Notes under the pieces: model-generated | Database searches by the model: none | Seen by the model: the letters and a program-made list of their open reading frames with translations, nothing else | Told to the model about the DNA's origin: nothing | Program-made: the position numbers and the translations under genes | DNA from: an uncultured Holophagae bacterium | GTDB lineage: Bacteria; Acidobacteriota; Thermoanaerobaculia; Thermoanaerobaculales; Sulfomarinibacteraceae | Length of the DNA stretch: 64,000 nucleotides | Reading direction: 5' to 3' | NCBI GenBank assembly: GCA_963710645.1 | Contig: CAVQBD010000009.1 | Location: 1,551,199-1,615,198, forward strand | Shown here: positions 18,731 to 59,909 of the stretch, piece by piece | How positions within the stretch are numbered: position 1 is the stretch's first letter | Layout of the letters: every line of letters begins with the position of its first letter

Positions 18731-18772
18731 AGAAAATGAGAAATGAGAAATGAAAAATGAAGGACGTGAAAA
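18731..18772. repeat. Heptamer-periodic tandem array (AGAAAAT GAGAAAT GAGAAAT GAAAAAT ...)
   Basis: About 6 units of 7 nt, read directly, in the 159-bp gap between the LarA-like gene and phoD. Confidence 0.8.
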
Positions 18773-18858
18773 TCGAGACTCGGATTTCGGGACTCGTAAA
18801 TGTCTGATAACGAGAATGTGGTGGTGGCCAATGAGCCATCACCTGTGGAAGGTTTGAC

Positions 18859-20298
18859 ATGAGATTATCCTCCGTTGTTTCGCGATGCGTAATGCTCTCG
18901 CTGATTGTTTTCACCCTGACGTCACCCGCACTGGCCGCGTCGCGGGACGACGATGGGTACCCGAGGCTGATGCAGGGTCCAATGGTGGGGACCGTGACTC
19001 CTACCGAGGCACATATCTGGCTTCGAACCACGGGCGAGTATGTCGTCACCATCGAGTACGGCACCGGCTTCGAACTTCGATCGGCTCTCACCACCGAACC
19101 GGTGACGGCGAGCAAGACTGCGGACTACACGCTGGTGGTGACGATCCCAGATCTCCAACCCGCCACCGAGTACTTCTACCGCGTACTGGTCGACGGCCAG
19201 GGCGACAAATATCTCGAGGAATATCCGCCGTTCCGATTCAAGACCGCACCGGCCCCGGGAACCAGCGCCAGCTTCAGGGTCGGCTTCGGTTCCTGTCCCA
19301 AATACCAGGATGACCGGATGCAGCCGATCTGGCCGGTCATCTCGGGATTCGAACCGGATCTGTTTTTCTGGATTGGGGACAACATCTACGGCGACACCCT
19401 CGACCCGGACATCCTGCGTGAGGAGTACCGCCGCCAGCGCGATGTCCCCGGGTTGCAACCCCTGCTGCACAACACCTCGCACCTCGCCGTCTGGGATGAT
19501 CATGATTTCGCGCTCAACAACCACGATCGAACCAACCCCATCAAGGACCGGGCGCTCGAGGTGTTCAAGGACTACTGGGCCAACCCTGCCTACGGACTGC
19601 CCGATGTACCGGGTGTGTTCTACAGCTACAGCTTCGGCGACGTTGATTTCTTTTTCATCGACGATCGCTATTACCGGGATCCCAACTCGGATCCGGACAC
19701 CCCGGAGAAGACCATGTTGGGACCCGCCCAGTTTGACTGGCTGCTCGAGCGGTTGTCGGCGAGCACAGCGGTCTTCAAGGTGATCGTATCGGGAAGCGGC
19801 TTCAGCAAGGCCAAGGGCGAGGGCGGCGACTCGTGGGCCGCGTTTCTCAACGAACGGAACAGGCTTTTTGACTTCATTCGGGACGAGGAGATCAGCGGCG
19901 TGGTCCTGCTGACGGGCGACTCCCACGTGGGCGAACTCAACGTGATTCCGTGGTCGGAGCGGGGCGGCTACGATCTCTACGATCTCGTGAGTTCGCCACT
20001 GGCCCAGCGCAACCCGGATTCATGGCTGCACCGGAGACCCGAGCGGCGCATCCGTCCGGTGTACTTCAGGGGAAGCAGTGTCGGCGTGGTGGACTTTCTG
20101 CTCGATGATCCGCCACGCTTGATGTACCGCATCATCGACATCCACGGCCGCAACGTCTGGGAGCCATTCGTTGTGCGGGCGGACGAGCTGGTCAACGGCG
20201 TGACATCCTGGCCCGATAAGGTCCACAGCGATTCCAGACAACGCCAGGAGAACTACGATGCTGGCAAGGGCTATTACGAGATCGAGGCGGAGGACTAG
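18859..20298 (+). CDS. phoD: PhoD-family alkaline phosphatase/phosphodiesterase, secreted
   Basis: 479 aa. Signal peptide. FWIGDNIYGD, AVWDDHDF and LLTGDSHVGE metallophosphatase blocks typical of PhoD. Confidence 0.85.
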   Translation: MRLSSVVSRCVMLSLIVFTLTSPALAASRDDDGYPRLMQGPMVGTVTPTEAHIWLRTTGEYVVTIEYGTGFELRSALTTEPVTASKTADYTLVVTIPDLQPATEYFYRVLVDGQGDKYLEEYPPFRFKTAPAPGTSASFRVGFGSCPKYQDDRMQPIWPVISGFEPDLFFWIGDNIYGDTLDPDILREEYRRQRDVPGLQPLLHNTSHLAVWDDHDFALNNHDRTNPIKDRALEVFKDYWANPAYGLPDVPGVFYSYSFGDVDFFFIDDRYYRDPNSDPDTPEKTMLGPAQFDWLLERLSASTAVFKVIVSGSGFSKAKGEGGDSWAAFLNERNRLFDFIRDEEISGVVLLTGDSHVGELNVIPWSERGGYDLYDLVSSPLAQRNPDSWLHRRPERRIRPVYFRGSSVGVVDFLLDDPPRLMYRIIDIHGRNVWEPFVVRADELVNGVTSWPDKVHSDSRQRQENYDAGKGYYEIEAED

Positions 20299-20301
20299 CC
20301 G

Positions 20302-21504
20302 GTGACAAACAATTGCCATTGCCGTGGGTTTCGCGGCTCCTTTGCTGGTTCACTCGTCGTTCATCTGACGGTGCTGACGCTCGTCCTCATGGCAGGCGGG
20401 CTGGGCGCTGAAGCGGCGGAATCTCCGGACGGGGAACTGGTCTTCATCGTTGCCGCGGACATGAGGAACTTCGCCGCGGACGGTGTGTGGTCAAAGAATT
20501 TCTCGGGCGCGTGCGAGGCGGTGAAAAAGGTCGGTGCGGGTTCCTTCATGGTCAGTCCGGGTGACCTCGATGTGGATCCGCCGTCGGCGGTCAGGGACAT
20601 GGTGAGTACGGTCCTCGGCGACGACTATCCGTGGTACCCCATCCTCGGCAACCACGACCCCGAGTCTCCTTCCACCATGAAGTACCTGCGCGAGTACAGC
20701 CAGAGTGTGCCCAACGTGGTGAATCGGGGGCCAAAGGGTTGTGAGGCCACCACCTATTCCTTTGACTGGTCGAACGTCCACTTCGTGGTGCTCAATCAGT
20801 ATTTCGACGGCGTCAAGGACTGGGGTGTCGAGGGTGACGTGGTTCCCGATCTATTGGAGTGGCTCGAGGCGGATCTGGCCGCCAACACAAAGGACCGCGT
20901 CTTTGTCCTCGGACACGAGCCGCTGATCGTCATGCCCGACATGGACAACGGGCGGATCCGCCACCAGGGCAACTCCCTCGACGAGCACCCGGAGAACATG
21001 TTCCAGTTCCTCAAGTTATTGAAGGAGTACGAAGTTGTGGCCTATATCTGCGGTCACACCCACAACACCTCCTATTCGAACATCAACGGCGTGTGGCAGC
21101 TCGATGCAGGTCACGCCCGGGGCCTCGAGGAGGCCTCTTACGCCGACCGAATGTACGCCGCCATCTCCGCAGCGATCGAGACCGGACGGGCCCATGGCGT
21201 CGGCGAGGCGGAGTCCATCAGGCAACTGTATAGAGACGACGCCTATCACGTGGACTATTGGTTCAAATACCTGGGGCTGGCGGGCCAACCTGTGGTTCAA
21301 ACCATGGCCCAGTTCTACGACGAGTACGGTACCGACCCCGGTGCACGAGACCGGTACTACGAAGCTCAGATCAAGGGCCGGGGCCAGACCCCAAGCACGT
21401 TTTTGAAAGTCACGGTGGGCGCGGCGAAGGTCACGGTGGATTTTTATCGCGACGACGCACATGGCGGGCCATACACTCTGCGAGAGACCCTCATTCTGGA
21501 TTGA
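20302..21504 (+). CDS. Calcineurin-like metallophosphoesterase, secreted
   Basis: 400 aa, GTG start. Signal/TM segment. SPGDLD, GNHD, VLGHEP and CGHTHN motifs. Confidence 0.8.
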   Translation: MTNNCHCRGFRGSFAGSLVVHLTVLTLVLMAGGLGAEAAESPDGELVFIVAADMRNFAADGVWSKNFSGACEAVKKVGAGSFMVSPGDLDVDPPSAVRDMVSTVLGDDYPWYPILGNHDPESPSTMKYLREYSQSVPNVVNRGPKGCEATTYSFDWSNVHFVVLNQYFDGVKDWGVEGDVVPDLLEWLEADLAANTKDRVFVLGHEPLIVMPDMDNGRIRHQGNSLDEHPENMFQFLKLLKEYEVVAYICGHTHNTSYSNINGVWQLDAGHARGLEEASYADRMYAAISAAIETGRAHGVGEAESIRQLYRDDAYHVDYWFKYLGLAGQPVVQTMAQFYDEYGTDPGARDRYYEAQIKGRGQTPSTFLKVTVGAAKVTVDFYRDDAHGGPYTLRETLILD

Positions 21505-23604: not shown

Positions 23605-23635
23605 CCCCCGGACAATTTGGTGACCCCAATCGATC

Positions 23636-24666: not shown

Positions 24667-26174
<1,508 letters not shown>

Positions 26175-26178
<4 letters not shown>

Positions 26179-27734
26179 GACGGAAGAGAGCACTCGAGGC
26201 GATCGAGGACTTCAATGGTTTCTGGGATTTGGTCATTGTCGGGGGCGGTGCCACCGGGCTTGGTGCGGCGGTGGATGCATCGGCCCGTGGCTACAAGACC
26301 CTACTGCTGGAGCAGCACGACTTTTCCAAGGGCACGTCCAGCCGGAGCACGAAACTGGTTCACGGCGGTGTTCGGTATTTGCGGCAGGGCAATGTGTCGC
26401 TGGTATTGGAGGCGCTCCACGAACGAGGGCTGCTGGCGCAGAACGCACCTCATCTGGTGCGCAATCAGTCATTCATCGTTCCCATTTACGACTGGTGGGA
26501 GGGGCCCTTCTACGGGATCGGGCTCAAGGTCTACGACAAGCTGGCGGGCCGTCTCGGTATCAAACCCTCCGAGGGGCTGTCGCGGGAGGAGACGCTGAAG
26601 AGGATTCCGAACCTCGAGCCCGAGGGTCTGCGTGGCGGAGTGCTCTACTACGACGGCCAGTTCGACGACTCGAGACTGGCAATCGATCTCGCCCGCACTG
26701 CGGTCCGACACGGCGGAACCGTCATCAACTACATGCGGGTCGAAGGACTGCTCAAGATCGGCGGCATGGTGTCGGGGGTCCGCGCCCGGGACCTGGAGAC
26801 GGGCAAGGAGCTTGTGATCAACGCACGGGTGGTGGTCAACGCCACCGGGGTCTTCACCGATCAGGTCCGGGTCATGGATGATCCACAGAGCCGGCCCATG
26901 GTCACCCCGAGCCAGGGCACCCATCTCGTGCTGGCCAGGGATTTCCTGCCGGGAAATGTGGCCATCATGGTGCCCCAGACCACCGACGGTCGGGTCCTCT
27001 TCGCGGTGCCGTGGCACGATAGGGTTGTGGTCGGCACCACCGACGTGGAGGTTGACGAGCCGACGCTGGAGCCGCGGGCCCTTCCCGAGGAAGTGGACTT
27101 CATCCTCGAAAATGCCTCGAGCTACATGGCCAAGGACCCGCAACGCTCCGATGTGCTGAGCGTGTTCGCCGGCCTTCGGCCGCTGGTGACGGCTGACGAC
27201 GATGAAGAGACTTCGAAGATCTCCCGCGACCACACGGTGGTGGTCTCCGAATCGGGTCTGGTGACAATCACCGGCGGCAAGTGGACCACCTACCGGAAGA
27301 TGGCCCAGGACGTCGTGGACCAGGCGGCCATGGTGGCCGGGCTGGTTCCCCATCCCTGTCCCACCGAGACCCTACGTATTCACAGCTGGCTCAAACATGT
27401 GGATCCCTCGGATCCTCTCCACGTCTATGGCTCGGATGCCCCGGCGCTGCGCAAACTCGTTCAAAAGGACCGCAAGTTGGGCGAGCCGCTCGACGAACGG
27501 CTGCCGGTGATTGGAGCGCAGGTGGTGTGGGCGGTGGAAAAGGAGATGGGTCGAACCGTGGAGGACGTGCTCGCCCGGCGGACTCGCGCCCTGCTGCTGG
27601 ACGCGCGGGCCAGCGTCGCGGTGGCGCCACAGGTGGCCAAGCTCATGGCACGCTGGCTGCGCAAGGGCCGGAAATGGCAGGCCGAGCAGGTTGAGGCCTA
27701 CACCGCCGTCGCCAGTGGTTATATCTTGGACTGA
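26175..27734 (+). CDS. glpD: FAD-dependent glycerol-3-phosphate dehydrogenase
   Basis: 519 aa. [21 protein letters not shown] motif and [22 protein letters not shown] overlap with glpK. Confidence 0.9.
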
Positions 27735-27740
27735 CAAAAA

Positions 27741-27855
27741 GTGAATAGTAAATAGTGAATAGTGAATAGTAAATAGACCGAGTTGGGGTCCCCACGCCCT
27801 TGCCGGACGGGAGGGGGCATATTCACTATTCACTATTTACTATTCACTTATTACT
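27741..27855. repeat. Pair of inverted heptamer arrays (GTGAATA/GTAAATA x5 and its complement x5) forming a perfect 27-bp inverted repeat
   Basis: 27741-27767 is the exact reverse complement of 27821-27847, checked base by base, with a 53-nt spacer. It lies between the convergent glpD and peroxiredoxin genes. The right arm contains the peroxiredoxin stop codon. Confidence 0.9.
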
Positions 27856-28461
27856 TGAGCTGCGCGACACCCCCAGCGACGCGAGCCGCTGGGCGATTTG
27901 GGTCCCGTGGGAGCCCGCGTCCACCTCGGTGATGATGTCCAAGATGGTGCCGTCGACGCCGATGATGAAGGTCCACCGCTCCGGGTACGACCGACCTTCG
28001 TGGACCACCCCGTAGGCCTTGGCAGTCTTTTTGTCCGGGTCGCTCAAGACCGGGTAGTCCAGATCGAGGGTCTTGGCGAACCGTCTATTAGTCTCGGGCG
28101 AGTCGCAACTGGCGGCGAAAAGGGCGATATCAAAGGCATCGAGGCCCGATCCGTCGGAGGTGGGGAGTTCGATTGCCTTGCCGCTTTCGAGTTCGACCAT
28201 CTGCGCATGGGTTCGTCCGCTGGCACGCAGCGAATCGCACTCGCTGGTTCAGCCGCCGGTGAAGGCCTTGGGGAACCAGGCGAGGACGACCACCTGCTTG
28301 TCGTGCAAGTCGTCGAGCGTGTGAGTCTCGCCGTCGCTGCCGGGAAGCTCGAAGGCGGGCGCTGGGTCGCCGATTCCCAGGGCGGGTGGGCCGGCAACCA
28401 CCGTGAGAGAGGCGCAGGTCATTGCGATACCCAAGACACAGATCGAAGGGAACGGTTTCAT
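27844..28461 (-). CDS. Secreted AhpC/TSA (BCP-like) peroxiredoxin with in-frame TGA at the peroxidatic Cys position: candidate selenoprotein, or alternatively a nonsense pseudogene
   Basis: Track ORFs 28249..28461 and 27844..28200 are in the same frame (offset 261 nt), separated only by the TGA at 28249-28251. Read-through gives ...VVVLAWFPKAFTGG-U-TSECDSLRA..., matching the Prx motif FxPxxFTxxC-T.E. Signal peptide at the N-terminus. Confidence 0.6.
28228..28246 (-). promoter_or_regulatory. Candidate bacterial SECIS-like hairpin just 3' of the in-frame UGA
   Basis: The mRNA reads UGA AC-CAGCGA-GUGCGAU-UCGCUG: a 6-bp stem (7 with G-U) and a loop starting GU. A second possible hairpin, CUGCG...CGCAG, lies 22-51 nt after the UGA. 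Neither was evaluated with a model. Confidence 0.3.
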
Positions 28462-29505: not shown

Positions 29506-29597
29506 TGCAAGCCCCCAGAGATTTCAGAATTCGTGACAGCGGCAGAAACCAGGTTCAACCCGCCCCGCCGTGAATCTGGCGAGCACTATACCGTGTT

Positions 29598-29674
29598 CGG
29601 GACTCGGGACTCGGGACTCGGATGAAGCAGCCGCTCGTGCGCTCCGATCAACCGAATCCCGAGCCCTGAGCCCC
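29598..29674. repeat. Inverted heptamer arrays: CGGGACT x3.5 (29598-29622) and CCGAATC CCGAGCC CTGAGCC CC (29652-29674)
   Basis: Read directly. The two arms are about 19/23 complementary, including a G-U-compatible position. Confidence 0.75.
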
Positions 29675-29738
29675 GTTGGCTTCAGGACCCCAAGACCTCA
29701 AGACCATGGTGCGGGTGGGGGGCCGTGATCCCCGGTGC

Positions 29739-31677: not shown

Positions 31678-31753
31678 GTGGAGCAGCGGGCAGTACCGCC
31701 CGCCCGGAATCGTACTGCCCACTTGACACGCGCCTTCTAATGGGTGGCAACCT

Positions 31754-31861
31754 GCCGGCGGCAGCGATTGTGGCCTGGGCCGGGAGGGATGTGGCGGGGG
31801 GTGACCCGGCCACTGGCCACTCGCTGGTGACGGCTGGTCACCGCGGCCGCAGGCCGCGAGT
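31754..31861. mobile_element. MITE-like GC-rich repeat, copy 1, flanked by 5-bp direct repeat AACCT
   Basis: It shares its termini with the copy at 52199-52320: GCCGGCGGCAGCGATYGTGGCC on the left and GGCCACTCGCTGGTGACGG...CCGCGGCC-loop-GGCCGCGAG on the right. AACCT occurs at 31749-31753 and 31862-31866. Confidence 0.5.
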
Positions 31862-31921
31862 AACCTCGGGGAGTGCCATCAGAATAGGGGCGCGATGAAA
31901 TCAGTGAATCGAAGCGAACGC
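31862..31921 (+). repeat. Partial, diverged copy of the 149-bp intergenic element (3' module)
   Basis: AACCTCGGGGAG...AAATCAGTGAATCGAAGCGAACGC aligns with 52053-52113 and with the reverse complement of 59700-59760. Confidence 0.6.
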
Positions 31922-32084
31922 TCGGGGAGCCTCCATCGCGCCCCGATTCTCATTGCGCCCCCCGTGAGGATGCCAGGCACGCCGATTCGCCCAATCGAGA
32001 CGGGTCATGTCTGCGGCCGCGGCGAATCGGGATGCCAGGCACCTCCGAGGGACGCGCCCTACGCTCCGGGTTGGCGGGGGACCC

Positions 32085-32168
32085 CATGCCTCATACCCCA
32101 CAACCCATACCCCGGGTGGGCGAAGGTCAACCCGGAACTCGCAACCCTCAACCCGAAACTCCTCAACG
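32085..32168. repeat. Heptamer-periodic arrays in one register (CATACCC/CACAACC then TCAACCC/GCAACCC/GAAACTC)
   Basis: 12 consecutive 7-nt units, read directly. The array runs into the stop codon of the patatin gene (32163-32165). Confidence 0.75.
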
Positions 32169-33059
32169 TCCCAGGAGCTTCTTGAGATACGGCAACTGCT
32201 GTTCCGCGGTCCTCTCCCCCTGCTCGATGACATAGGAGAACTTACCGGTGTCGAAGAGACCAACTCGCTGATCGAAGTCGGGCAACACCGGAATGATCTC
32301 GGCGTGGTGGGCGAGATTGTGAAACGCGTAGCTCGCCCGCAGCAGATTATTGGTGTACACGCTGTTGAGCTGGAAGGCGTAGCGAGTTGCTGACTTGATT
32401 TTGCGCGGGTACTCGGCCTCAAAACCCATGGCCAGAATGATCTCCGCTCCCTCGCGAATGGCCACATCAACCGGCAGGGGATTGGAAAGACAGCCGTCGA
32501 CGAGCATGCGATCGCCCACCTGCCAGGCGGGCCAGACGTAAGGTATGGCGATGCTGGCGCGGATCGCGTCGAAGAGCCGGCCCTCGGAAAGGACGACCTT
32601 CTCGCCGCTGTGGAGATCGGTTGTGGAGATGTGAAGCGGCGTCACGGTGTCGTCAAAGGTTCGGTCACCGAAGCCCTCAGCCAACAAGCGATTCAATGCG
32701 TCGTCGCTGATCAGGCTGAACCGGCTGTCGAAGGCGAAGAACTTGGGTAGGAAGATGCTCGCCACCGCCCTGAGATTCCGCGATGCCGTGACCTCTCGGG
32801 TCCACAGCTTTTTGGTCAGGGCCTCGACCTCTTCAAGATCGGCATTGAGGGCCATCATGGTCGTGAAGAGCGTTCCTCCGCTACAACCGACAAAAAGATC
32901 GATGGGGATGTTCTCCCGATGGAGGACCCGCCACAATCCGAGGGCCGCGGCGCATTTGACCGCTCCGGATCCCACTACGAGAGCGATCTGGGGGGTGTTT
33001 TTTGAATTGTCAGCCATCGTGTGCTCCGTTTCTCTGTGGATCGTCGCCTCGAACACCAT
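32163..33059 (-). CDS. Patatin-like phospholipase
   Basis: 298 aa (alternative start MADNSK at 33017). Oxyanion GSGAVKCAA, lipase motif GCSGG, catalytic Asp context VDGCLSNPLP. Confidence 0.85.
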   Translation of the reverse strand: MVFEATIHRETEHTMADNSKNTPQIALVVGSGAVKCAAALGLWRVLHRENIPIDLFVGCSGGTLFTTMMALNADLEEVEALTKKLWTREVTASRNLRAVASIFLPKFFAFDSRFSLISDDALNRLLAEGFGDRTFDDTVTPLHISTTDLHSGEKVVLSEGRLFDAIRASIAIPYVWPAWQVGDRMLVDGCLSNPLPVDVAIREGAEIILAMGFEAEYPRKIKSATRYAFQLNSVYTNNLLRASYAFHNLAHHAEIIPVLPDFDQRVGLFDTGKFSYVIEQGERTAEQQLPYLKKLLGR

Positions 33060-35933: not shown

Positions 35934-35978
35934 AGTAAATAATTTGCAATTTGCAATTTGCAATTTGCAATCTGTAAT
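35934..35978. repeat. Heptamer tandem array (AATTTGC x4 plus degenerate flanking units)
   Basis: Read directly. Lies between the convergent STAS gene and carB. Confidence 0.85.
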
Positions 35979-35996
35979 GGGTGGACGGGCGGGGAG

Positions 35997-42892: not shown

Positions 42893-43120
42893 TCAGTAGT
42901 AGGGCACGGCGACCGGCGGTCCGACCACGACGACGCCACCGCCACCGTATCCCGGATAACCGCCGTAACCCCAGCCGGGACCGTAGCCACCATAGCCGTA
43001 GCCGTGGCTCACCCCCACATACGTTGTTGTCGAGCCGTCAGCGGAAGTGCAGCCGGTCAACCACAGGACTGCGACCACAACCAGGAGAAGGGACGCCAGC
43101 GTCCGCATTGGATGTTTCAT
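42893..43120 (-). CDS. Small Gly/Tyr-rich lipoprotein
   Basis: 75 aa. Lipobox LTGC followed by GYGYGGYGPGWGYGGYPGYGGGG. Overlaps the stop of the upstream VOC gene. Confidence 0.55.
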   Translation of the reverse strand: MKHPMRTLASLLLVVVAVLWLTGCTSADGSTTTYVGVSHGYGYGGYGPGWGYGGYPGYGGGGVVVVGPPVAVPYY

Positions 43121-43971: not shown

Positions 43972-44065
43972 GAAAACTCCTTCACCGAGTGTGTACGCAC
44001 AACCGATCCACGAAGATACAGCAATTAGGGAGATCCTTGGATTCCCGGGACCATGAGAAGCTGTT

Positions 44066-44078
44066 GGTGCCAGGCACC
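44066..44078. repeat. 13-bp perfect palindrome GGTGCCAGGCACC
   Basis: Read directly in the VOC/mscS intergenic region. The same 13-mer occurs at 54387-54399, and near-copies GGATGCCAGGCAC at 31968 and 32029. Confidence 0.7.
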
Positions 44079-44356
44079 GTCGCAGATGTCGCGATCTCGT
44101 GCTCCGTTGCACGACGGTGCATTCCCGACCGCTCCCCGAGGTGCCCCAGAATGATGCGACTCGAGGGCTGATGACGCGATCAGGTCCCGACATTGTGAAC
44201 GACGCACGCCGCTCCCGCACCCACTCCCTGCATGGCTCGCTCCCGCTTTGCTCCCTGCTCCTGCGCCTCTCCCCCCCCACCCCCCTGGCGATGCAAACAC
44301 GCCTGCGCTAAGGTGTGGGTTCCAAAAAACTAAAGAGGCACGAGAGGAGAAGACGC

Positions 44357-45196: not shown

Positions 45197-45260
45197 GAGC
45201 AGGGAGCAGAACCCCTGCCCCTGAGGGTGGTTTCGGGTGACGAATTCCGGGTTTCGGGCT
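45197..45260. repeat. Heptamer-periodic segment including a 9-bp bulged hairpin (45200-45223) just after the mscS stop
   Basis: GAGCAGG GAGCAGA ACCCCTG CCCCTGA, then GGTTTCG recurring at a 21-nt spacing (45229 and 45250). Confidence 0.5.
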
Positions 45261-45298: not shown

Positions 45299-45332
45299 AA
45301 AAAACCGCCCACCCGGGTTCCCGGATGGGCGG
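45299..45332 (-). terminator. Rho-independent terminator of the beta-helix protein gene
   Basis: The minus strand reads CCGCCCA-tccgggaacccggg-TGGGCGG followed by TTTTTT, 28 nt after the stop at 45360. Confidence 0.6.
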
Positions 45333-45359
45333 TGGATTGTGCAACCGTGATCGACTGAA

Positions 45360-49138: not shown

Positions 49139-49139
49139 G

Positions 49140-50045: not shown

Positions 50046-50051
50046 CCCGGG

Positions 50052-50419: not shown

Positions 50420-51778
50420 ATGACCCGACCCTTCGAGCCCCCGAGCCGCGCTGAATTCGCCGCCATGCTTCGCCTGGCGGGGCCGGTGGTTGTGGTGCAG
50501 GTGGGTCTGATGCTCATGGGTGTGGTGGATATCATGGTGGTGGGGAGGGTATCGGCCAACGCCCTGGCGGCTGTCGCCCTGGGCCACGTGTCCGTCATGA
50601 CTATTGTGTCCTTCGGGCTGGGAACGCTCATGGTGGTGGATCCGCTGGTGTCCCAAGCTATCGGTGCCCGCGACCGTTTGGCGGTGCGGCGGACCTTTCA
50701 ACGGTGTCTCTTCATGACCGTCTTGATCGCCCTTCCAGCGATCGTTCTCTTGATCCCGGTGAAACCGGTGCTGGTGTTTCTCCGACAGCCTGTGGAGACG
50801 GTGCCCCTCGCCGCGGGCTATGTCCACCGTTGTCTGCCGGGGTTGTTGCCATTCTTCGGATTCATAGTGCTCCGCCAGACCCTGCAGGCCATGGAACGCA
50901 TGCGGCCCATCGTGCTGACCATTGTGGGGGCCAACGGATTGAATCTGTTGCTTGACCTCGCCCTGGTGCACGGCCGCTGGGGATTTCCGGCCCTCGGTCC
51001 ACTGGGATCGGCATGGGCCACCACCATCAGCCGACTCACTCTGTTTGTCGGACTGGCTTTCGCCGCCCGCCGGGATCTGGCGCCTCTTGTGGCACGTTTC
51101 GATCGAGAGGCCGTGAAGCTGATGCCCCTTCTGAGGACCCTCAAATTGGGGATCCCCATCGGTCTTCAGATTCAGCTCGAATTCACCTCTGTGAGCGCCA
51201 TCGCCCTGATGATGGGTGGTATGGGAGCCGTCACCATGGCCGCCCACCAGGTGGCCATCAATCTGGCGGCCCTCACCTTCATGGTGCCTCTGGGGGTGTC
51301 GGCCGCGTCGGCGATCCGCGTCGGACACGCTGTTGGTCGGAATGATCAGGGTGGAGTCCGCCGTGCGGCTTCGGCGGCGCTCATTTGCGGCGCCGGTTTC
51401 ATGACGTGCACTGCCGTCCTGTTCCTCCTCCTGCCCCGACAGCTGGCCTCGGCCTACACCCCGGAGGTCGAGGTGCTCGTGCTGGCCGCCTTGCTGATTC
51501 CCATCGCCGGCGTCTTCCAGATCTTCGACGGTCTGCAGATCGTGTCGGCCGGTATTTTACGTGGCCTCGGAGACACCCGTGCACCCATGCTGATCAATCT
51601 ATTCGGCTTCTGGCTGATCGGCATTCCGGTGAGCATCCTGTTGGCCTTCCGCCTCGGGCTGGGTCCCCAGGGTCTTTGGTGGGGCTTTGTGGTGGGCCTC
51701 GCGGTGGTGTCGACCATGCTGCTTCTGCGAATCGGCTCAAAGTTGTCGCGGCCGGTGGAGCGCGTCACCGTCGAGTGA
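50420..51778 (+). CDS. MATE-family efflux transporter
   Basis: 452 aa, 12-TM pattern, with internally duplicated MatE-like halves. Confidence 0.85.
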   Translation: MTRPFEPPSRAEFAAMLRLAGPVVVVQVGLMLMGVVDIMVVGRVSANALAAVALGHVSVMTIVSFGLGTLMVVDPLVSQAIGARDRLAVRRTFQRCLFMTVLIALPAIVLLIPVKPVLVFLRQPVETVPLAAGYVHRCLPGLLPFFGFIVLRQTLQAMERMRPIVLTIVGANGLNLLLDLALVHGRWGFPALGPLGSAWATTISRLTLFVGLAFAARRDLAPLVARFDREAVKLMPLLRTLKLGIPIGLQIQLEFTSVSAIALMMGGMGAVTMAAHQVAINLAALTFMVPLGVSAASAIRVGHAVGRNDQGGVRRAASAALICGAGFMTCTAVLFLLLPRQLASAYTPEVEVLVLAALLIPIAGVFQIFDGLQIVSAGILRGLGDTRAPMLINLFGFWLIGIPVSILLAFRLGLGPQGLWWGFVVGLAVVSTMLLLRIGSKLSRPVERVTVE

Positions 51779-51906
51779 ACCCCCTCCCGCCCGGTCGGGA
51801 ACAAGGAGCAAGGAACATCCCCCGCCCGCTCAGGCAGCAGGGAGTAGCCCCGCCCACCTGGAGTCTGGGGGCGCTTTGGGCGGGCTTGCCACTCCGGGTA
51901 CCTTCA

Positions 51907-51941
51907 AGTTGAACGTTAAACGTTGAATGTTCCCACCCACC
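51907..51941. repeat. Heptamer-periodic array AGTTGAA CGTTAAA CGTTGAA TGTTCCC ACCCACC
   Basis: Read directly. A related array, ..CAATTTT GAATGTT GAGTTTC CACCCAA, occurs at 57791-57818. Confidence 0.7.
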
Positions 51942-51970
51942 CTCCAGGATTGTGAGAGGCCGCGTTGATC

Positions 51971-52119
51971 GGGCGTGCCGTCTCCGACGATTTTAAGTTG
52001 GGGCCGAACCTCTATCGTGCCACGATGGGTCCCAAATATCGTCGGAGGGGGCAACCTCGGGGAGCGCGATTGGGAGATGCTTGCGTCGAAGTCAGCAAAT
52101 CGAAGCGAGCGCGCGGGCC
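51971..52119 (+). repeat. 149-bp conserved intergenic element, copy B (possible structured RNA or REP/BIME-like unit)
   Basis: Aligns without gaps to the reverse complement of 59694-59842, with about 121/149 identical by my hand count. Contains the 10-bp stem CTCCGACGAT (51982-51991) / ATCGTCGGAG (52038-52047). Confidence 0.8.
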
Positions 52120-52180: not shown

Positions 52181-52198
52181 TACTGCCTACTGCCAACT
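52181..52198. repeat. Heptamer array TACTGCC TACTGCC (left flank of MITE-like copy 2)
   Basis: Read directly. The same CTACTGC unit resumes at 52321-52348 and occurs again at 54481-54494. Confidence 0.75.
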
Positions 52199-52320
52199 CG
52201 CCGGCGGCAGCGATCGTGGCCGTGGCCGTGTGCGGTGACGCGAGACGCACAAGAAGGTGGACTGGCAGGCCTACGGCCACTCGCTGGTGACGGGGAGTCG
52301 CCGCGGCCATCGGCCGCGAG
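52199..52320. mobile_element. MITE-like GC-rich repeat, copy 2, flanked by 5-bp direct repeat CAACT and sitting inside a CTACTGC heptamer array
   Basis: Its termini match those of copy 1 (31754-31861). CAACT occurs at 52194-52198 and 52321-52325. Conserved hairpins: GGTGAC/GTCGCC (G-U-compatible change relative to copy 1) and CGCGGCC-ATC-GGCCGCG (loop GCA in copy 1). Confidence 0.5.
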
Positions 52321-52348
52321 CAACTGCCTACTGCCTACTGCCTACGAG
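52321..52348. repeat. Heptamer array CAACTGC CTACTGC CTACTGC CTACGAG
   Basis: Read directly, 67 nt upstream of acs. Confidence 0.8.
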
Positions 52349-52414: not shown

Positions 52415-54379
52415 ATGACCGAACCCAAGGACATTTACCCGCCGAAGCCCCACATCGCCGAACGAGCCCACATCGGTTCGATGGCGGAGTACGAACGGCT
52501 CTACCGTCTCTCTCTCGACGATCCCGAGTCCTTCTGGGGCAAGCAGGCGGAGCGGATCAGCTGGTTCCATCCTTGGAATGAGGTCTACGACCACGACTAT
52601 GACAACGTTGATTTCGGCTGGTTCCTTGGCGGGCGCCTGAACGCGTGCTTCAACTGTGTCGATCGCCATCTGAGCACCCGCGGCGACCAGGACGCCATCA
52701 TCTGGGCCAAGGACGAGCCCGGCGAATACCAGCACATCAGCTACCGCCAGCTCAAGCACGAGGTCAGCCGGGTGGCCAACGTCCTCAAGGTCCACGGGGT
52801 GCGTCGCGGCGATCGGGTCTGCCTCTACATGCCCATGATCCCGGAGCTGGCCTACACCATGCTCGCGTGTGCGCGCATCGGCGCCGTCCATTCCATCGTC
52901 TTTGGTGGATTCAGCTCCGAGTCCATTCGGGACCGGATCCTCGATGCTGGCGCTCAGGTCGTGGTGACCGCCAACCAGGGTCTCCGAGGCGGGCGAGTGC
53001 TCCACCTCAAGGAGACCGTGGACCGCGCTGTGGACGGCCTCGATCTGGTCAAGACGGTGCTGGTGGCGCGGCGCACCGACGCCGAGGTGCCCATGAAACC
53101 CGGCCGGGATCACTGGCTCGACGAGGAGTGTCGGAAACAGCGCTCCACCTGCACCTATCAGTGGATGGGTTCGGAGGATCCGCTGTTCATCCTCTATACG
53201 TCGGGATCCACCGGCAAGCCCAAGGGGGTGCTCCACACCACCGGGGGCTACATGGTCTATGCCGCCATGACCCACGAGCTGGTCTTCGACTACCACCCCG
53301 GAGACATCTACTTCTGCGCAGCCGACATAGGCTGGATCACCGGCCACAGCTACATCATCTACGGACCGCTGGCCAACGGCGCCACCACAGTGATGTTCGA
53401 GTCGGTGCCCAACTACCCCGACGCGGGCCGCTATTGGCGGGTGGTGGACGACTTGGGGGTGAATATCTTCTACACCGCGCCCACTGCCATCCGCGCCATC
53501 AACCGCGCTGGGGATGACCACGTCACAGGGTCTTCGCGGGAGTCATTGCGCATTCTGGGCACCGTGGGCGAGCCCATCAACCCGGACACCTGGCGCTGGT
53601 ACCACGATGTGGTGGGCGAGGGTCGGTGCGCCATCGTCGATACATGGTGGCAGACCGAGACCGGCGGCATCCTGATGACGCCATTGCCCGGGGTCACGCC
53701 GCTGAAGCCGGGATCGGCCACCCTCCCCTTCTTCGGGATCAAGCCGCTGGTTGTGGATGATGAGGGCGCGATCCTCTCCGGCGACGAGGTGACCGGCAAT
53801 CTCTGTCTCGAACGAACCTGGCCGGGCCAGGCTCGAACCGTGTGGGGCGACCACGAGCGCTTTCACGAGACCTACTTCACCCAGTTCCCGGGGCTCTACT
53901 TCACCGGTGACGGCTGTCGTCGCGACCGGGACGGCTACTACTGGATCACCGGCCGGGTGGACGATGTCATCAACGTGTCGGGCCACCGCATGGGCACCGC
54001 CGAGGTGGAGAGTGCGCTGGTTGCCCACGACGCGGTGGCCGAGGCTGCGGTTGTGGGTTTTCCCCATGACATCAAGGGACAGGGCATCTTCGCTTACGTC
54101 ATTCTCAACCTTTCCTCCGAGGGCGAAACCGAACCTAACGAGTTGGTGGGCGCCCTCAAGGAGCAGGTGCGTCACGTCATCGGTCCCATCGCCACACCCG
54201 ATGAGATTCTGATCGTGCCCGGGCTGCCCAAGACCCGCTCGGGCAAGATCATGCGCCGCATCCTGCGCAACATCGCCGCCGGCGAGTACACCGACATGGG
54301 TAACATCACCACTCTGGCGGATCCCGAGATCGTCGACACACTCATCACCGCCCACAAGGAACTCGTTGCAGAGGACTAA
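52415..54379 (+). CDS. acs: Acetyl-CoA synthetase (AMP-forming)
   Basis: 654 aa. [15 protein letters not shown]-binding motif, WWQTETGG, and the C-terminal [11 protein letters not shown] with the regulatory Lys. Confidence 0.97.
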
Positions 54380-54385
54380 AATAGT

Positions 54386-54400
54386 CGGTGCCAGGCACCG
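54386..54400. repeat. 15-bp perfect palindrome CGGTGCCAGGCACCG, 7 nt after the acs stop
   Basis: Read directly. Same core as at 44066-44078. Confidence 0.7.
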
Positions 54401-54480
54401 GCTCCCGCGTTCGGTTCGCCTCGCTGATCTCTGAGCTCTGCACTCTGGGCGGGAGGGGGCCGCGCCCTGCTCCCAGCACC

Positions 54481-54494
54481 CTACTGCCTACTGC
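54481..54494. repeat. Heptamer array CTACTGC x2, preceded by GATCTCT GAGCTCT GCACTCT at 54426-54446
   Basis: Read directly in the acs / K+ channel intergenic region. Confidence 0.65.
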
Positions 54495-54520
54495 CTCGAC
54501 TCATGTAAGATCATCCCACG

Positions 54521-55276
54521 ATGTCCGACCCGTCTCAGAGCCGCAGCTTCTTTGGCGCCCATCCCCACCGCAATATGTTCGTGGCCTTCCTGGTCATCCT
54601 CATCGCGGCGGTGTTGTTACCCAAGGAAATCATCGGTGGCCGGCTCTACGACTTCATGGTGGCCGGCATCTTCATGGTGGCCCTGCTGGAGACCGCGAGA
54701 ACACGTCGGAACAAGGTTGTGGCGCTGGCCATCGGCCTGCCGGCCATCGCCGCCCGTCTTTTCTTGTTGTACGCTGACGATTCCCGCGCCATCAACGGTT
54801 CGGTGCTCATGTTGAGCGCCATCTTCTTCGCCTACCTGATCTGGAATCTCCTCCGTGGTCTTTTTACGGGCGATCGCATCACCAGCGAGCGGGTCTTCGG
54901 TGCCCTCACGGCCTACCTGTGTATCGGGCTGCTGTTCGCTCTGATCTACGCCCATGTCCACTTCCGAGATCCCACCGCGTTCAGAATTCCCAACGAGCTT
55001 GTTGTGACCGCCAGCGATTCGGAAGCCCTGACCGTGCCGTCCTTTACCTACTTCAGTTTTGTGACCCTGACGACTCTGGGCTACGGCGATTTCGTACCCC
55101 TTTCCGAAAAGGCGCGCAGCCTGGCCTGGTTGGAGGCGATCATCGGACAGCTCTTTCTTGCGGTGTTGGTGGGCGGGCTGGTGGGGGTGTTCTTTGCCGA
55201 GGCAGCCAATCAAGCCGCTCAAGCCACCTTCAGAGACGGCCGGAAGGACGACACGAAGTCCTCGAAGGGCGAGTGA
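54521..55276 (+). CDS. Potassium-channel family protein
   Basis: 251 aa. Several TM helices and a pore loop with selectivity filter TLTTLGYGDF. Confidence 0.8.
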   Translation: MSDPSQSRSFFGAHPHRNMFVAFLVILIAAVLLPKEIIGGRLYDFMVAGIFMVALLETARTRRNKVVALAIGLPAIAARLFLLYADDSRAINGSVLMLSAIFFAYLIWNLLRGLFTGDRITSERVFGALTAYLCIGLLFALIYAHVHFRDPTAFRIPNELVVTASDSEALTVPSFTYFSFVTLTTLGYGDFVPLSEKARSLAWLEAIIGQLFLAVLVGGLVGVFFAEAANQAAQATFRDGRKDDTKSSKGE

Positions 55277-55303
55277 CCTGGTCCTTCTGACCTAAGATCA
55301 ACT

Positions 55304-55373
55304 CGGAGCCCCGAGCCCCGAGCCCCGAGCCCCGAGCCCCGAATTTCGAATTTCGAATTTCGAATTTCGAATT
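55304..55373. repeat. Two abutting in-register heptamer arrays: CCGAGCC x5, then TCGAATT x5
   Basis: 10 consecutive 7-nt units, read directly. The composition switches from GC-rich to AT-rich with no change of phase. Confidence 0.9.
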
Positions 55374-55387
55374 TTTCCATCATGAAC

Positions 55388-55418
55388 AAAGCCGCCCTCC
55401 GGGATGGAGGGCGGCTTT
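55388..55418. terminator. Strong GC hairpin between convergent genes (bidirectional terminator candidate)
   Basis: AAAGCCGCCCTCC-GGGAT-GGAGGGCGGCTTT. T-runs follow on both strands (TTTAGG on plus, TTTGTTC on minus). Confidence 0.55.
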
Positions 55419-55445
55419 AGGTTCTTGACCGAGATGTCCTGTGCC

Positions 55446-56147: not shown

Positions 56148-56353
56148 GTCCTTTTTATGATTACCGTGAATCTGAGACCCGGTGCGTTTTTCAGCGGTCG
56201 GGTCAGGCGGTTACGATACACAATGGGATCATGAAGTGTACCAGTGCGCGACGTCCTCGGGGCCACCCGGCCATCCTGGATGTGATCGATACATCGGGAG
56301 AGCAATTGCCGACCCACCACCCCGCGAATCCACAGCGGTATATTGGTCTTGCG

Positions 56354-57772
56354 ATGCACGATCTCCCTCATGTCCAGGAAGCAGCGGATCGGCCGGGGAT
56401 TTCAAACGTGACCGGGCTGGTAGTGGTTGTCGTCGGTTTCATGCTGTCAAGGGTCTACTTCTGGTGGCTCGGGGTTCGCTTCGAGACCTCGTCGCTCCAG
56501 TGGTACTGGCAGGTGCTCGACCCGCAGCTGCTGGCAACCAGGCTTGCGGAGAGCGTCTTCTTCTTGCACGCCCAGCCGCCGCTGTTCAATCTAATGGTGG
56601 GCGTCGGTCTCAAGCTGTCACCGGATCATGTCGGGCTGGTCTTCCACCTGGTGTATCTCGGTCTGGGACTCGTGCTGGCGGTGGTGATCTACCGGATGTT
56701 GACCCGGTTCGGGCTGTCGCCGCTCATCGCCGCGGTGTTTGTTCTGCTCTACGCCACCTCGCCCAACTGGCTGATGTACGAGAACTGGCTGTTCTACGAT
56801 TTTCCCAACGCAGTGCTCCTCGTCTTTGCCGGCGCGGCGTTGCTGGTTTTCAGTCGAACCTCATCGATTGGCTGGCTGGCCCTTTTCTTTGTCCTGCTCG
56901 CCGCGGTGGTCTGGACCCGTAGTCTTTTTCACCTGGTGTGGTTTGTGGGATGCGTGGGGCTCGTGATGGTGGCCAGACCGCGGCGCTGGCGTGCGATCGC
57001 CGCGGCTGCGGCGGTGCCGATTTTGTTGATCGTCGCGCTGTTTGCCAAAAACCTGGTGGTCTTCGACTTCTTTGGATCGAGTTCGTGGCTGGGGATGAGC
57101 CTCACCAGGCTCACCACGGCCGTGATGGATCCGCCGGAGCGCGGAGCATGGGTGGACGAGGGGCGATTGTCACGGGTGGCGTTGGTGCCGCCCTTCAGTC
57201 CCATCGCGGTCTACGAGTCGGCGGGCGTGCCGGTGCCAGATTGCGGAATACCGGTCCTCGGCTGGCGGCTCAGATCCACCGGCGCGCCCAACTTCAACCA
57301 CGCCGCCTACCTCCAGATCTCACGGATGAGCCTGGACGACGCCAAGGTGGTGATCCGGAGTCGGCCGGGTCTCTACCTGGGTTCGGTGGCTCGGTCGAGC
57401 GGTCGCTTCTTCTGGTCACCGGTCAACTACCCGCCCTTCCGCAACAATCTGGTGGCCACCGCCTCGACCTACAGGCTCTTCGAGTCCACGGTGAACCTGC
57501 CGCCAGTGGCGGCCATACTGGGGTTTCTCGCAGTGGCCTATGGTGGGATCCGGGGGTGGCGTTGGCTGCGCGGGTCGGGATCGGGTGACGACGCTTTCTT
57601 CGCTTTCTCCGTATTCACCATTACATGGGTCTTTTGTGTGAGCAGTTTGTTGGAGCTCGGTGAGAACTTCCGTTTCAGGTTCGCCGTGGAGCCGCTTGTG
57701 GTCGTCATCCTTGGCGCCATGGTTGCTGATTTGATGAGACGAAGGGGCAACGAAGAAGGCAGTGAGTCGTGA
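56354..57772 (+). CDS. Polytopic membrane protein, possibly GT-C-like glycosyltransferase
   Basis: Track ORF 56231..57772 trimmed to MHDLPHV. Many TM segments. FLHAQPPLFNL is reminiscent of the HPPL loop of PMT/ArnT-type enzymes. Weak assignment. Confidence 0.5.
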   Translation: MHDLPHVQEAADRPGISNVTGLVVVVVGFMLSRVYFWWLGVRFETSSLQWYWQVLDPQLLATRLAESVFFLHAQPPLFNLMVGVGLKLSPDHVGLVFHLVYLGLGLVLAVVIYRMLTRFGLSPLIAAVFVLLYATSPNWLMYENWLFYDFPNAVLLVFAGAALLVFSRTSSIGWLALFFVLLAAVVWTRSLFHLVWFVGCVGLVMVARPRRWRAIAAAAAVPILLIVALFAKNLVVFDFFGSSSWLGMSLTRLTTAVMDPPERGAWVDEGRLSRVALVPPFSPIAVYESAGVPVPDCGIPVLGWRLRSTGAPNFNHAAYLQISRMSLDDAKVVIRSRPGLYLGSVARSSGRFFWSPVNYPPFRNNLVATASTYRLFESTVNLPPVAAILGFLAVAYGGIRGWRWLRGSGSGDDAFFAFSVFTITWVFCVSSLLELGENFRFRFAVEPLVVVILGAMVADLMRRRGNEEGSES

Positions 57773-57776
57773 ATCG

Positions 57777-57875
57777 GAGTTTTGAGTGCTCAATTTTGAA
57801 TGTTGAGTTTCCACCCAACCGTTTGGAAGCGGCCAGGAACAATTCAATACTGAGAATTGAGAATTCAAAATTTCC
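57777..57875. repeat. Two AT-rich heptamer-periodic arrays (GAGTTTT GAGTGCT CAATTTT GAATGTT GAGTTTC, and ..GAATTGA GAATTCA AAATTTC)
   Basis: Read directly in the gap upstream of the radical SAM gene. The left array is related to 51907-51941. Confidence 0.6.
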
Positions 57876-57937
57876 GGCAGTCGTCCAACGAAATTAAAAC
57901 GGCTGCACCAGACTCGGTTCATGAGGAGCGCCGCGCC

Positions 57938-59368: not shown

Positions 59369-59693
59369 TATTCCACCGCCCACCCGTTGTTAGACCTTTA
59401 ACTTCAGGTTCATCCGGGGAATCGTGGGGTGGCGATTCTGCGCGCCCGTCTCCGTGCCCGGATTCAGGCGGCAGGGGCAGCGACGGCAATCAGGTACAGC
59501 GTCCGTGATCGGCGGCTGCGTCAGCGATCAGGGGCCGAGGCGGTGATCAGGTGGGATTGCCCCGGATTACGGTCGCTGTTCACCGATGCTGCCATCTGCC
59601 CCGGGCACCGGTTGCTGTCCCTGTCCCTGTCCCGGCCGCAGCCGACTGCCGCTGATCGCTGATAGCTATCGCAGACACTGGCGCCGGAATCCG

Positions 59694-59842
59694 GGCCCTT
59701 GCGTTCGCTTCGATTCACTGACTTCGACGCGCCCATCTCCCAACCGTGCTCCCCGAGGGAGCCCCCTCTGACGATATTTGGTACTCGTCGCGGCAAGCTG
59801 CCTGTTCGACCTCAACCCAAAATCGTCAGAGACGGCACGCCC
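59694..59842 (-). repeat. 149-bp conserved intergenic element, copy C (inverted relative to copy B)
   Basis: Its reverse complement aligns to 51971-52119. The stem here is CTCTGACGAT (59766-59775) / ATCGTCAGAG (59822-59831), a compensatory C:G to T:A change relative to copy B. Confidence 0.8.
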
Positions 59843-59881
59843 GCCTGTCGCGCCCACGTCGCTCCGGGTGGGCGGGTGGTC

Positions 59882-59909
59882 TAGCCCCCAGATCCTAGCC
59901 CCTAGTCCC
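59882..59909. repeat. Heptamer array TAGCCCC CAGATCC TAGCCCC TAGTCCC
   Basis: Read directly. Overlaps the stop codon of the GT-C gene (59902-59904). A separate 6-nt array, CTGTCC x3, lies at 59615-59632. Confidence 0.7.

Follow-up and report, generated by a model that had tools for sequence, protein, structure and literature searches.

We examined a window of 64,000 nucleotides (nt) from the genome of an uncultured Holophagae bacterium (assembly GCA_963710645.1, contig CAVQBD010000009.1; positions below count from the first letter of the window), in which the spacers between genes carry tandem arrays of seven-nucleotide units, or heptamers. A crude gene map based on G+C content at third codon positions (GC3) leaves 5,432 bases (8.5%) of the window as intergenic. 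The preliminary description, made from the letters of the window, had reported pervasive arrays of period 7 with diverse units in intergenic DNA, and this was borne out by each of three tests. Tandem Repeats Finder (TRF) returned 17 arrays of period 7 and only 1, 3 and 1 of periods 5, 6 and 8; it also returned seven of period 9, every one of them coding. In a census of exact runs (lag-matched runs of at least 12 bases, periods 4-15) there were 7 at period 7, 3 at period 14, 2 at period 6 and 0 at the remaining periods. A sliding test requiring at least 18 of 21 lag matches over periods 2-20, with first-order Markov shuffles as the control, found 6 segments at period 7, 4 and 2 at its multiples 14 and 21, and none at the other periods, while the shuffles gave 0.0. 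All of these segments were 100% intergenic, and relaxing the threshold to at least 16 of 21 gave 9 intergenic and 0 coding segments at period 7. With 6-9 strong segments in the window against 0.0-0.1 in shuffles, head-to-tail iteration of 7 nt goes well beyond chance, and period 7 is over-represented in a strongly non-random way.

The arrays are listed in Table 1. All of the sites named in the preliminary description hold 7-periodic sequence, of graded quality: the arrays at 18734, 27736, 27820, 29597, 35941, 52323, 55306 and 55341 are strong, those at 29650, 32085, 32128, 51907, 54424, 57777/57837 and 59881 are degenerate yet clearly 7-periodic, and only two units are found at 45197, 52181 and 54480. 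The claim that adjacent arrays stay in register was partly upheld. It is true of the contiguous pair 55306/55341, whose units GAGCCCC and GAATTTC are four transitions apart, and of the spaced pairs 27736/27820 and 54424/54480, but not of 29597/29650, 32085/32128 or 52181/52323; a constant register between neighbours was rejected as a rule since it holds in only 3 of 6 pairs. The array at 55341..55374 is followed by a conserved hairpin, AAAGCCGCCCTCCGGGATGGAGGGCGGCTTT.

Table 1. Heptamer arrays and associated features in the window. Dispersed elements A and B are described in the last section.
Position	Strand	Feature	Detection and context
18734..18760		(AAATGAG) x3.9	TRF, 95% matches; tandem spacer, 35 nt past stop of gene 17395-18699(+); no inverted partner
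27736..27776		Hairpin left arm, GTGAATA/GTAAATA x5.9	2 nt past stop of glycerol-3-phosphate-oxidase-like gene 26175-27734(+)
27777..27819		Spacer of 27736/27820 hairpin (loop + inner stem), 43 nt	GC-rich
27820..27856		Hairpin right arm, TATTCAC x5.1	TRF; reverse complement of 27736 arm
29597..29621		(TCGGGAC) x3.6, perfect	TRF; unit GGGACTC fits Xanthomonas (GGGANTN)n
29650..29676		Imperfect inverted partner of 29597 array (CCGAATCCCGAGCCCTGAGCCCCG)	Fold
32085..32112		Degenerate CATGCCT CATACCC CACAACC CATACCC	Lag-7 identity 0.71
32128..32159		Degenerate (CAACCCG) x4.6	TRF, 72% matches; ends 4 nt short of stop of patatin-like gene 32163-33059(-)
35941..35971		(AATTTGC) x4.4, perfect	TRF; convergent spacer, 26 nt from stop of carB-like gene 35997-39194(-)
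45197..45227		Mini-arrays GAGCAGG GAGCAGA + CCCCTGCCCCTG	Two units each; small hairpin
51798..51817		(GGAACAA) x2.9	TRF; 20 nt past stop of MatE gene 50420-51778(+)
51907..51930		Degenerate AGTTGAA CGTTAAA CGTTGAA TGT	Followed by CCCACCCACCC, then dispersed element A
52181..52194		(TACTGCC) x2	5' side of dispersed element B (52188-52325)
52323..52345		(ACTGCCT) x3.3, perfect	TRF; 3' side of element B; 70 nt upstream of acetyl-CoA synthetase start
54424..54451		Degenerate CTGATCT CTGAGCT CTGCACT CTGGGCG (CTGNNCT x4)	After acetyl-CoA synthetase gene; conserved in L001
54480..54496		(CCTACTG) x2.4	TRF; 56 nt (8 x 7) past 54424 array, beyond GC hairpin; conserved at L001 12457
55306..55340		(GAGCCCC) x5, perfect	TRF; 30 nt past stop of K-channel-like gene 54521-55276(+)
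55341..55374		(GAATTTC) x4.9	TRF; contiguous and in register with 55306 array
57777..57807	+	T-rich left arm, GAGTTTT GAGTGCT CAATTTT GAATGTT GAG	Intercistronic hairpin, 5 nt past stop of 56231-57772(+)
57837..57872	+	A-rich right arm of 57777 hairpin
59650..59672		Weak array CGCTGAT CGCTGAT AGCTATC	TRF; adjoins element A reverse-complement copy 59694-59843
59881..59910		Degenerate CTAGCCC CCAGATC CTAGCCC CTAGTCC	TRF, 69% matches

Placement, size and spread of the arrays

The host is GC-rich (63% GC for the genome of the window) and non-cyanobacterial, as had been supposed. Its nearest relatives are Thermoanaerobaculia-type metagenome-assembled genomes (MAGs) of Acidobacteriota, and its acetyl-CoA synthetase (52415-54379, assigned with Pfam) is 89-91% identical at the protein level to MAGs labelled Holophagae, Thermoanaerobaculales or 'Sulfomarinibacteraceae' (Acidobacteriota). 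One relative, L001, is syntenic with positions 41932-64000 at 78-88% nucleotide identity. TRF was run on 80 genomic loci of relatives and distant taxa, which are given L numbers here. Per 16-22 kb there were 6-12 period-7 arrays in L001-L004 and 5-6 in L010, L019 and L034; distant GC-rich loci had mostly 0-1, and periods 9 and 12 (coding repeats) prevail there. Metagenome contigs of relatives, 424 kb in all, also had more arrays of period 7 (54) than of any other class. In 53 kb of pooled intergenic DNA of the lineage, observed and expected numbers of exact repeats of period 7 were 37 and 3.5 at 2-2.5 copies, 24 and 0.1 at 2.5-3.5 copies, and 14 and 0.0 at 3.5 copies or more. The corresponding values were 33/16, 8/0.5 and 1/0 for period 6 and 8/1.4, 2/0 and 1/0 for period 8. 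Period 7 exceeds periods 5, 6, 8 and 9 in the intergenic DNA of both the window and the lineage, and heptamer arrays are a lineage-wide trait of a Thermoanaerobaculia subclade. An assembly artefact was ruled out because no array is longer than 41 nt and arrays recur in independent MAGs, with the copy numbers of 55306-55374 the same in L001.

Across the lineage loci, 93 arrays fall in 64.7 kb of intergenic DNA and 35 in 551 kb of coding DNA, a 23-fold higher density between genes. Arrays occupy 21 of 79 convergent spacers (27%) and 32 of 134 tandem spacers (24%), as opposed to 2 of 75 divergent ones (3%; Fisher p = 4.5e-6). The median distance from stop codon to array is 17 nt, and 31 of 74 arrays lie within 10 nt of the stop or overlap it, so that the location at gene 3' ends given in the preliminary description has strong statistical support. 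Three arrays had been said to overlap stop codons; two do, namely the 27820..27856 arm (stop 27844-27846 of the open reading frame [ORF] 27844-28200(-)) and the 59881..59910 array (stop 59902-59904 of gene 59902-62163(-)), and three others come within 1-4 nt of a stop (27734, 32163 and 57772). No arrays are found in the first 18 kb of the window because this is a tightly packed operon region with hardly any 3' spacers.

Copy number has its mode at 4-5 units and falls abruptly above 5.5. Units are very diverse, with 58 canonical units among 100 arrays, and 58 of the 100 have two or fewer G/C in genomes of 60-65% GC. Two properties that might have been expected of the unit sequences were tried and rejected. 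A stop triplet within a repeated heptamer would block all three reading frames, since 7 is 1 modulo 3, but sense-strand stop triplets occur in 39 of 74 arrays compared with 40.2 for shuffled units. Self-complementary units (a 6-bp palindrome plus 1) are likewise no more frequent than expected, at 15 of 100 against 15.4.

Inverted pairs and predicted hairpins

Reverse-complement pairing, with at most one mismatch per unit, is seen in 24 of 47 pairs of neighbouring arrays, compared with a chance level that we roughly estimate at 1% per pair. The paired arms are mostly of 4-5 units each (about 30 nt, for a stem of about 30 bp), and the spacer of 30-46 nt between them often carries a short GC-rich stem of its own. 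There are three such pairs in the window: 27736-27856, 29597-29676 and 57777-57872. The first is an inverted repeat of 33 nt and 97% complementarity with an A/T-rich stem of about 30 bp, folding at -60 kcal/mol on either strand, and its variant unit GTAAATA is mirrored at the same position in both arms. For the hairpin at 29597-29676, folding favours the - strand, on which the flanking genes lie, by 11 kcal/mol. The one at 57777-57872 folds at -38.5 on the + strand and -28.6 on the - strand, with 5 and 1 G.U pairs, respectively.

One orthologous site in five 'Sulfomarinibacteraceae' genomes allowed us to look for covariation using RNAalifold. Identity is 69-88% in the arms, comparable to the neighbouring genes (75-90%). 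In the spacer it is only 35-45% for 8 of 10 genome pairs, with 63% and 76% for the two closest. Units that read TTGAGTT/AACTCAA in some genomes read TTGAATT/AATTCAA in others. In the alignment 37 columns are paired and pairing holds in 88% of cells. Double changes from G-C to A-U affect 6 pairs, compared with 0-2 when the partners are slid by 1-3 columns; the observed number of pairs was attained in 12 of 500 shuffles. Given five sequences and arms of low complexity this is supportive rather than conclusive, but it points to arm complementarity being maintained while the loop is free to change.

There are also signs that the pairing matters in the transcript. Of 17 hairpins in co-directional spacers, 13 have the more stable fold on the transcribed strand; with orthologues counted once, the figure is about 9 of 12. 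Of 28 inter-arm transition mismatches, 20 could form G.U pairs on the transcribed strand and 8 could do so on the antisense strand (one-sided binomial 0.018, our own calculation); they come partly from orthologous hairpins and are not fully independent. Strand stability and G.U asymmetry together are no more than suggestive of RNA-level constraint. Canonical Rho-independent terminators, with a GC-rich stem-loop directly followed by a U-tract, were considered and rejected, as a consensus scan flags no array hairpin itself. One weak match at 27791-27775 lies in the 27777-27819 spacer with its T-tail reaching into the left arm, and the clear terminator hairpins (45304-45333 and the 55393-55421 stem) are separate structures beside arrays. 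A scan of the window against Rfam at gathering thresholds gave no match.

The paired layout raises the possibility that these are small non-autonomous mobile palindromes, REPIN- or MITE-like, with heptamer-built arms that spread by transposition. REPINs, or REP doublets, have two inverted arms and a short spacer that form an extragenic hairpin near gene 3' ends, with arms conserved above the loop, and the two inverted arms of about 30 nt described here, with their short spacer and 3' location, recall this architecture. Mobility would fit with L123, L124 and L129, distant relatives that each have the same element at two non-orthologous sites per contig (arms AATTATG, inner stem CATCGCA...TGCGATG, loop variable). 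It would also fit with the 57777-57872 hairpin, which is present in the window and L001 and missing from the orthologous 40-nt spacer of L002/L003, and with arrays that bracket dispersed elements (A and B in the window; L001 2121/2386; L108 6249-6752). However, two element copies per contig are seen only in those three distant relatives, and in the window each hairpin or array has its own unit with no multi-copy family. REP arms are not tandem heptamers, and REPINs form large near-identical families linked to a RAYT transposase, whereas neither transposase nor RAYT was seen among the 20 window proteins scanned with Pfam (about 40% of the genes). Many arrays are unpaired, and no target-site duplications were recognised. 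We consider transposition an improbable origin for the paired arrays.

Known heptamer repeats and the origin of the arrays

The arrays had been called STRR-like, which holds for diverse intergenic heptamer arrays at gene 3' ends but not for membership of the cyanobacterial family itself. The consensus units of that family are CCCCAAT (STRR1), TTGGTCA (STRR2) and CAACAGT (STRR3). As no two tandem units of STRR1-3 occur in the window on either strand with up to 2 mismatches, the arrays do not belong to the STRR family of Calothrix and Anabaena, with which they share tandem intergenic heptanucleotides and several units per genome. Besides the difference of phylum, inverted pairs are few among Nostoc heptamers (PMC4692102) and common here. 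The units GGGGATT and TAACTGA are absent from the window arrays, and GGACCGG has scattered matches outside arrays only.

The statement that a GC-rich non-cyanobacterial genome offers no equivalent does not stand, as there are precedents in Xanthomonas (PMC4692102), Geobacter (PMC2700814), Burkholderia and Actinobacteria. According to the account of Mrazek et al. 2007 given in PMC4692102 and PMC4679880, heptamers outnumber every other class of long simple-sequence repeat in many bacteria, GC-rich Burkholderia, Xanthomonas and Actinobacteria among them. Nor is it the case that no mechanism for period 7 has been put forward, since the same two papers relay a hypothesis from Mrazek et al. 2007 in which slippage is set by the footprint, or contacts, of the polymerase. 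As that 2007 work (Mrazek, Guo and Shah) is represented there, the prokaryotic class of long simple-sequence repeats with units of 5-11 nt resembles our arrays in its dominant 7-nt units, mostly intergenic location, many different units and occurrence in large free-living genomes that include GC-rich ones; what differs here is that the 3'-end bias, paired hairpins and arm covariation have been quantified.

The closest anatomical match is in Xanthomonas (65% GC), where Rehm et al. (2015, PMC4692102) described 186 and 183 GGGAATC-type arrays in two genomes. Those arrays prefer about 4 units, include 70-75 inverted pairs able to form stem-loops, mostly overlap a stop codon or lie within 0-50 bp of one, and are mostly transcribed; only 7-8% of them fall between divergent genes. 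All of this apart from transcription has its counterpart here, and in both systems array length and sequence vary between species. The Xanthomonas arrays are essentially one G-rich family, read as quadruplex-forming, whereas here there are many mostly AT-rich units and a single window array, 29597 (GGGACTC), fits (GGGANTN)n. Formation of G-quadruplexes or i-motifs, as proposed for the G-rich heptamers of Xanthomonas and Nostoc, would suit this array and several others that read (G3-4 N3-4)n on one strand (GAGCCCC x5, CTAGCCC, CAACCCG, TCGGGAC and GCAGGGC of L001). But 58% of units, with two or fewer G/C, are unable to form such structures, and the G-rich strand has no consistent orientation to transcription. 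G3/C3 runs, found in 11 of 26 GC-rich units where 8.2 are expected (p = 0.135), are not significantly enriched. Quadruplexes cannot be the general explanation of units that are many and mostly AT-rich, and we regard this as a highly improbable account of the arrays.

In Geobacter metallireducens there are families of tandem heptanucleotides, some with four units and some with five, at dozens of sites (PMC2700814), matching the 4-5 units seen here, and the MTYCTGA x5 class is drawn strand-switching, that is, palindromic. Those are multi-copy families of single consensus, seen as regulator sites or RNA elements and partly located in genes, unlike the site-specific extragenic units of the window. 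Following the regulator sites proposed there and the cold-shock-type RNA binder suggested in PMC4679880, our arrays could be iterated binding sites for a protein, either a regulator or one that contacts single-stranded RNA over 7 nt, such as a cold-shock protein. Phasing of four to five units is typical of cooperative binding, and arm sequence is kept across five genomes beyond what pairing alone would need. In addition, units of GARTTTT type are found again in different genera at sites that are not orthologous (window 57777, L001 15831, L005/L010/L015/L034/L051, L110 and L124/L129). This recurrence is no greater than in shuffled-unit controls, however: when a single AT-rich family, GARTTWT, was tried, the largest single-linkage cluster held 66 units compared with a shuffled-unit mean of 70. 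The diversity of units is too high for one sequence-specific protein, and arrays are nearly absent from the divergent spacers that bear promoters. Binding sites are a very unlikely general explanation.

A further system, the TAACTGA direct repeats of Beggiatoaceae, cyanobacteria and Bacteroidetes (PMC4679880), is also intergenic and in some genomes mixed with other heptamers. It has a single unit lying mainly just upstream of start codons, with a proposed role in translation regulation, whereas TAACTGA is absent here and our arrays follow stop codons. Since the window arrays share behaviours but not unit sequences with these systems, they belong to the general heptamer-repeat class and not to the STRR, Xanthomonas G-rich or TAACTGA families. 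Heptamer arrays as a repeat class, including in GC-rich non-cyanobacteria, are already known. What is new is the host phylum, the dominance of AT-rich site-specific units and the comparative evidence of maintained paired arms. Among the top 10 matches of a full-text literature search for tandem or intergenic repeats, none mentions Thermoanaerobaculia, and no description for this class or for Acidobacteriota was found.

We think it probable that the arrays are heptanucleotide long simple-sequence repeats that grew by slippage and persist after stop codons, and that the paired subset acts as RNA stem-loops. A 7-nt unit would first be duplicated and then expanded by slipped-strand synthesis, with the replication and repair machinery of the lineage strongly favouring a 7-nt step. 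Slippage and the reason for 7 would follow from the polymerase-footprint hypothesis, and the excess of period 7 is seen at 2, 3 and at least 3.5 copies. Arrays would then survive only where they are harmless. Coding DNA excludes them, since 7 is not divisible by 3, and nearly none lie in promoter-bearing divergent spacers, so they would accumulate in the transcribed stretch just past stop codons; we infer that selection lies behind this observed distribution. About half of neighbouring arrays are inverted pairs, predicted to form long, mostly A/U-rich hairpins. In the transcript these may be 3'-end or intercistronic stem-loops with a role in 3'-end protection, in processing or in termination without a U-tract, and the unpaired arrays would be younger or decaying by-products.

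Turnover was examined between related genomes. At site 45197, where the window has two degenerate units, the L001 orthologue has GCAGGGC x4.7 and AATTCGA x3.3, and the spacer after the K-channel-like gene has four different solutions in four related genomes. Over shorter distances little changes: two contigs of one MAG, L002 and L003, share 99.8% identity over 6.6 kb, and the arrays appear stable in the short term and turn over between species. Within this pair, a 70-nt indel (L002 6139-6209 vs L003 325-326) lies inside a stretch that is otherwise 100% identical, and identity falls to 90-94% beyond about 6.9 kb, which suggests strain mixing or chimeric assembly. For sequence of the same species as the window, a 26-nt flank pattern gave 0 matches in metagenome contigs, and of seven proteins searched exactly, one matched on a 1-kb contig and six had none; beyond the source genome, the next relative in the protein search is at 82%.

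Several observations count against slippage-grown arrays with an RNA role. The preference for a step of exactly 7 is left unexplained by the present evidence. The four arrays shared by L002 and L003 are identical with no change in copy number, and 55306-55374 has 5+5 copies in both the window and L001 (13285-13352), where the flanking genes are about 15% divergent; slippage is therefore not fast. The latter site differs by T/C point changes only, and in our reading of the alignment its spacer is better conserved than the flanking genes. The mode at 4-5 units is not the monotonic decay that simple slippage predicts. On the RNA side, a transcription-coupled mutation bias could mimic the G.U asymmetry. 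Of 13 compositionally skewed pairs, 11 have the T-rich arm 5' and the A-rich arm 3', the opposite of the canonical terminator order of A-tract, hairpin and U-tract, with the 27736-27856 hairpin, A-rich arm first, as an exception. Finally, many arrays have no inverted partner (18734, 35941, 52323 and 55306/55341, for example), so a hairpin role covers only part of the set.

It could also be that the arrays are neutral junk, functionless products of slippage that survive wherever they are harmless. The very diverse units (58 canonical among 100 arrays) agree with this, as do orthologous spacers that hold different units, different copy numbers or no array in different species, and the tests of a sequence-level property (stop triplets, self-complementarity, G3/C3 runs) were all null. 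Evidence against neutrality comes from paired arms conserved like coding DNA around a randomised spacer, from compensatory G-C to A-U changes, from the constancy of 55306-55374 and from the narrow 4-5 unit mode. We see this as an unlikely explanation, though one with a real chance of being correct. A more speculative idea, which we hold to be rather unlikely, is that the AT-rich inverted hairpins are a distinct selected cis element of Thermoanaerobaculia transcripts, located 5-20 nt past stops and read or made by a dedicated factor with a 7-nt register, for example an OB-fold/cold-shock-type protein, a ring-shaped RNA binder or a repair polymerase. If true, such a factor would give a testable handle on why bacterial long repeats prefer period 7.

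Heptamer arrays are widespread and unexplained in large free-living bacterial genomes. A near-identical anatomy is now seen in a third or fourth unrelated phylum with entirely different, mostly AT-rich units, which argues for a general mechanism or constraint rather than the G-quadruplex chemistry of Xanthomonas. The pairs with covarying arms are good candidates for RNA hairpins at 3' ends or between cistrons, in a phylum where signals for termination and mRNA decay have hardly been studied. The arrays are useful as markers of the lineage, and they can mislead gene callers, since ORF starts or ends at 57857, 27844 and 59902 run into them.

Dispersed elements and other features of the spacers

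Two of these ORFs deserve comment. The radical-SAM/B12 gene starts at ATG 57938, a codon conserved in L001-L003, rather than at TTG 57857, which lies within the array. The AhpC/TSA-like ORF 27844-28200(-) encodes 118 amino acids that match the C-terminal half of PF00578 only, its last four codons and stop are supplied by the heptamer array, and a 70-amino-acid ORF (28249-28461) lies just upstream; 27844-28461 on the - strand may be a frameshifted gene or a sequencing error.

Element A is a non-coding sequence of about 150 nt found at 51970-52119, at 59694-59843 (reverse complement, 81%) and at 31864-31926, and elsewhere at L001 11979-12052, L108 6389-6497 and 6612-6659, and L082 163-211. It has no Rfam match and is repeatedly bracketed by heptamer arrays. 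Because it is absent from the orthologous spacers of L001, it was inserted or lost recently. Element B, about 135 nt long, forms an extended GC-rich palindrome when folded and occurs at 52188-52325, 31745-31864 and L001 12050-12184. The copy at 52188 sits between the CTACTGC arrays 52181 and 52323, as if inserted into, or seeding, an array.

Other motifs recur next to arrays. The 35941 array is followed by AATCTGTAATGGGTGGACGGGCGG, resembling the non-orthologous region at L001 9862; 35941-35990 and L001 9855-9900 have in common a composite of AATT(T/C)GC repeats and AAT(C/T)TGTAATGGGTGG(A/G). GC motifs of the GGGTGGGCGG/CCGCCCACCC type adjoin many arrays (32113, 45305, 51940, 59376 and 59870) and may be the usual terminator stem of the lineage. 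In three related contigs, the heptamer hairpin of one orthologous site is directly followed by a perfect, conserved palindrome, GTCTGATTCGC-NNNN-GCGAATCAGAC (L123 8426-8460, L124 5856-5890, L129 6406-6440). The region 44040-44280 is 81% conserved with L001 (2182-2368) and holds a GGTGCCAGGCACC hairpin; its L001 counterpart lies between GGAATGA and GACTTTC arrays. It may be non-coding, as it was the crude gene map that placed the 5' end of ORF 43117-44280(-) there. Motifs like GGTGCCAGGCACC or GATGCCAGGCAC are also found at 54387, 31970 and 32032.

Within the array-free first 18 kb, an apparent gap of 760 nt (8241-9000) is in fact coding: it is paralogous to 7209-8240, with a direct repeat of 141 nt that is 72% identical. 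The divergent spacer 4261-4492 contains three exact copies of a 14-bp palindrome, ATGGAACGTTCCAA, at 4279-4292, 4323-4336 and 4404-4417, where 0.05 would be expected by chance; these look like operators through which a dimeric regulator would control the divergent operons on either side.

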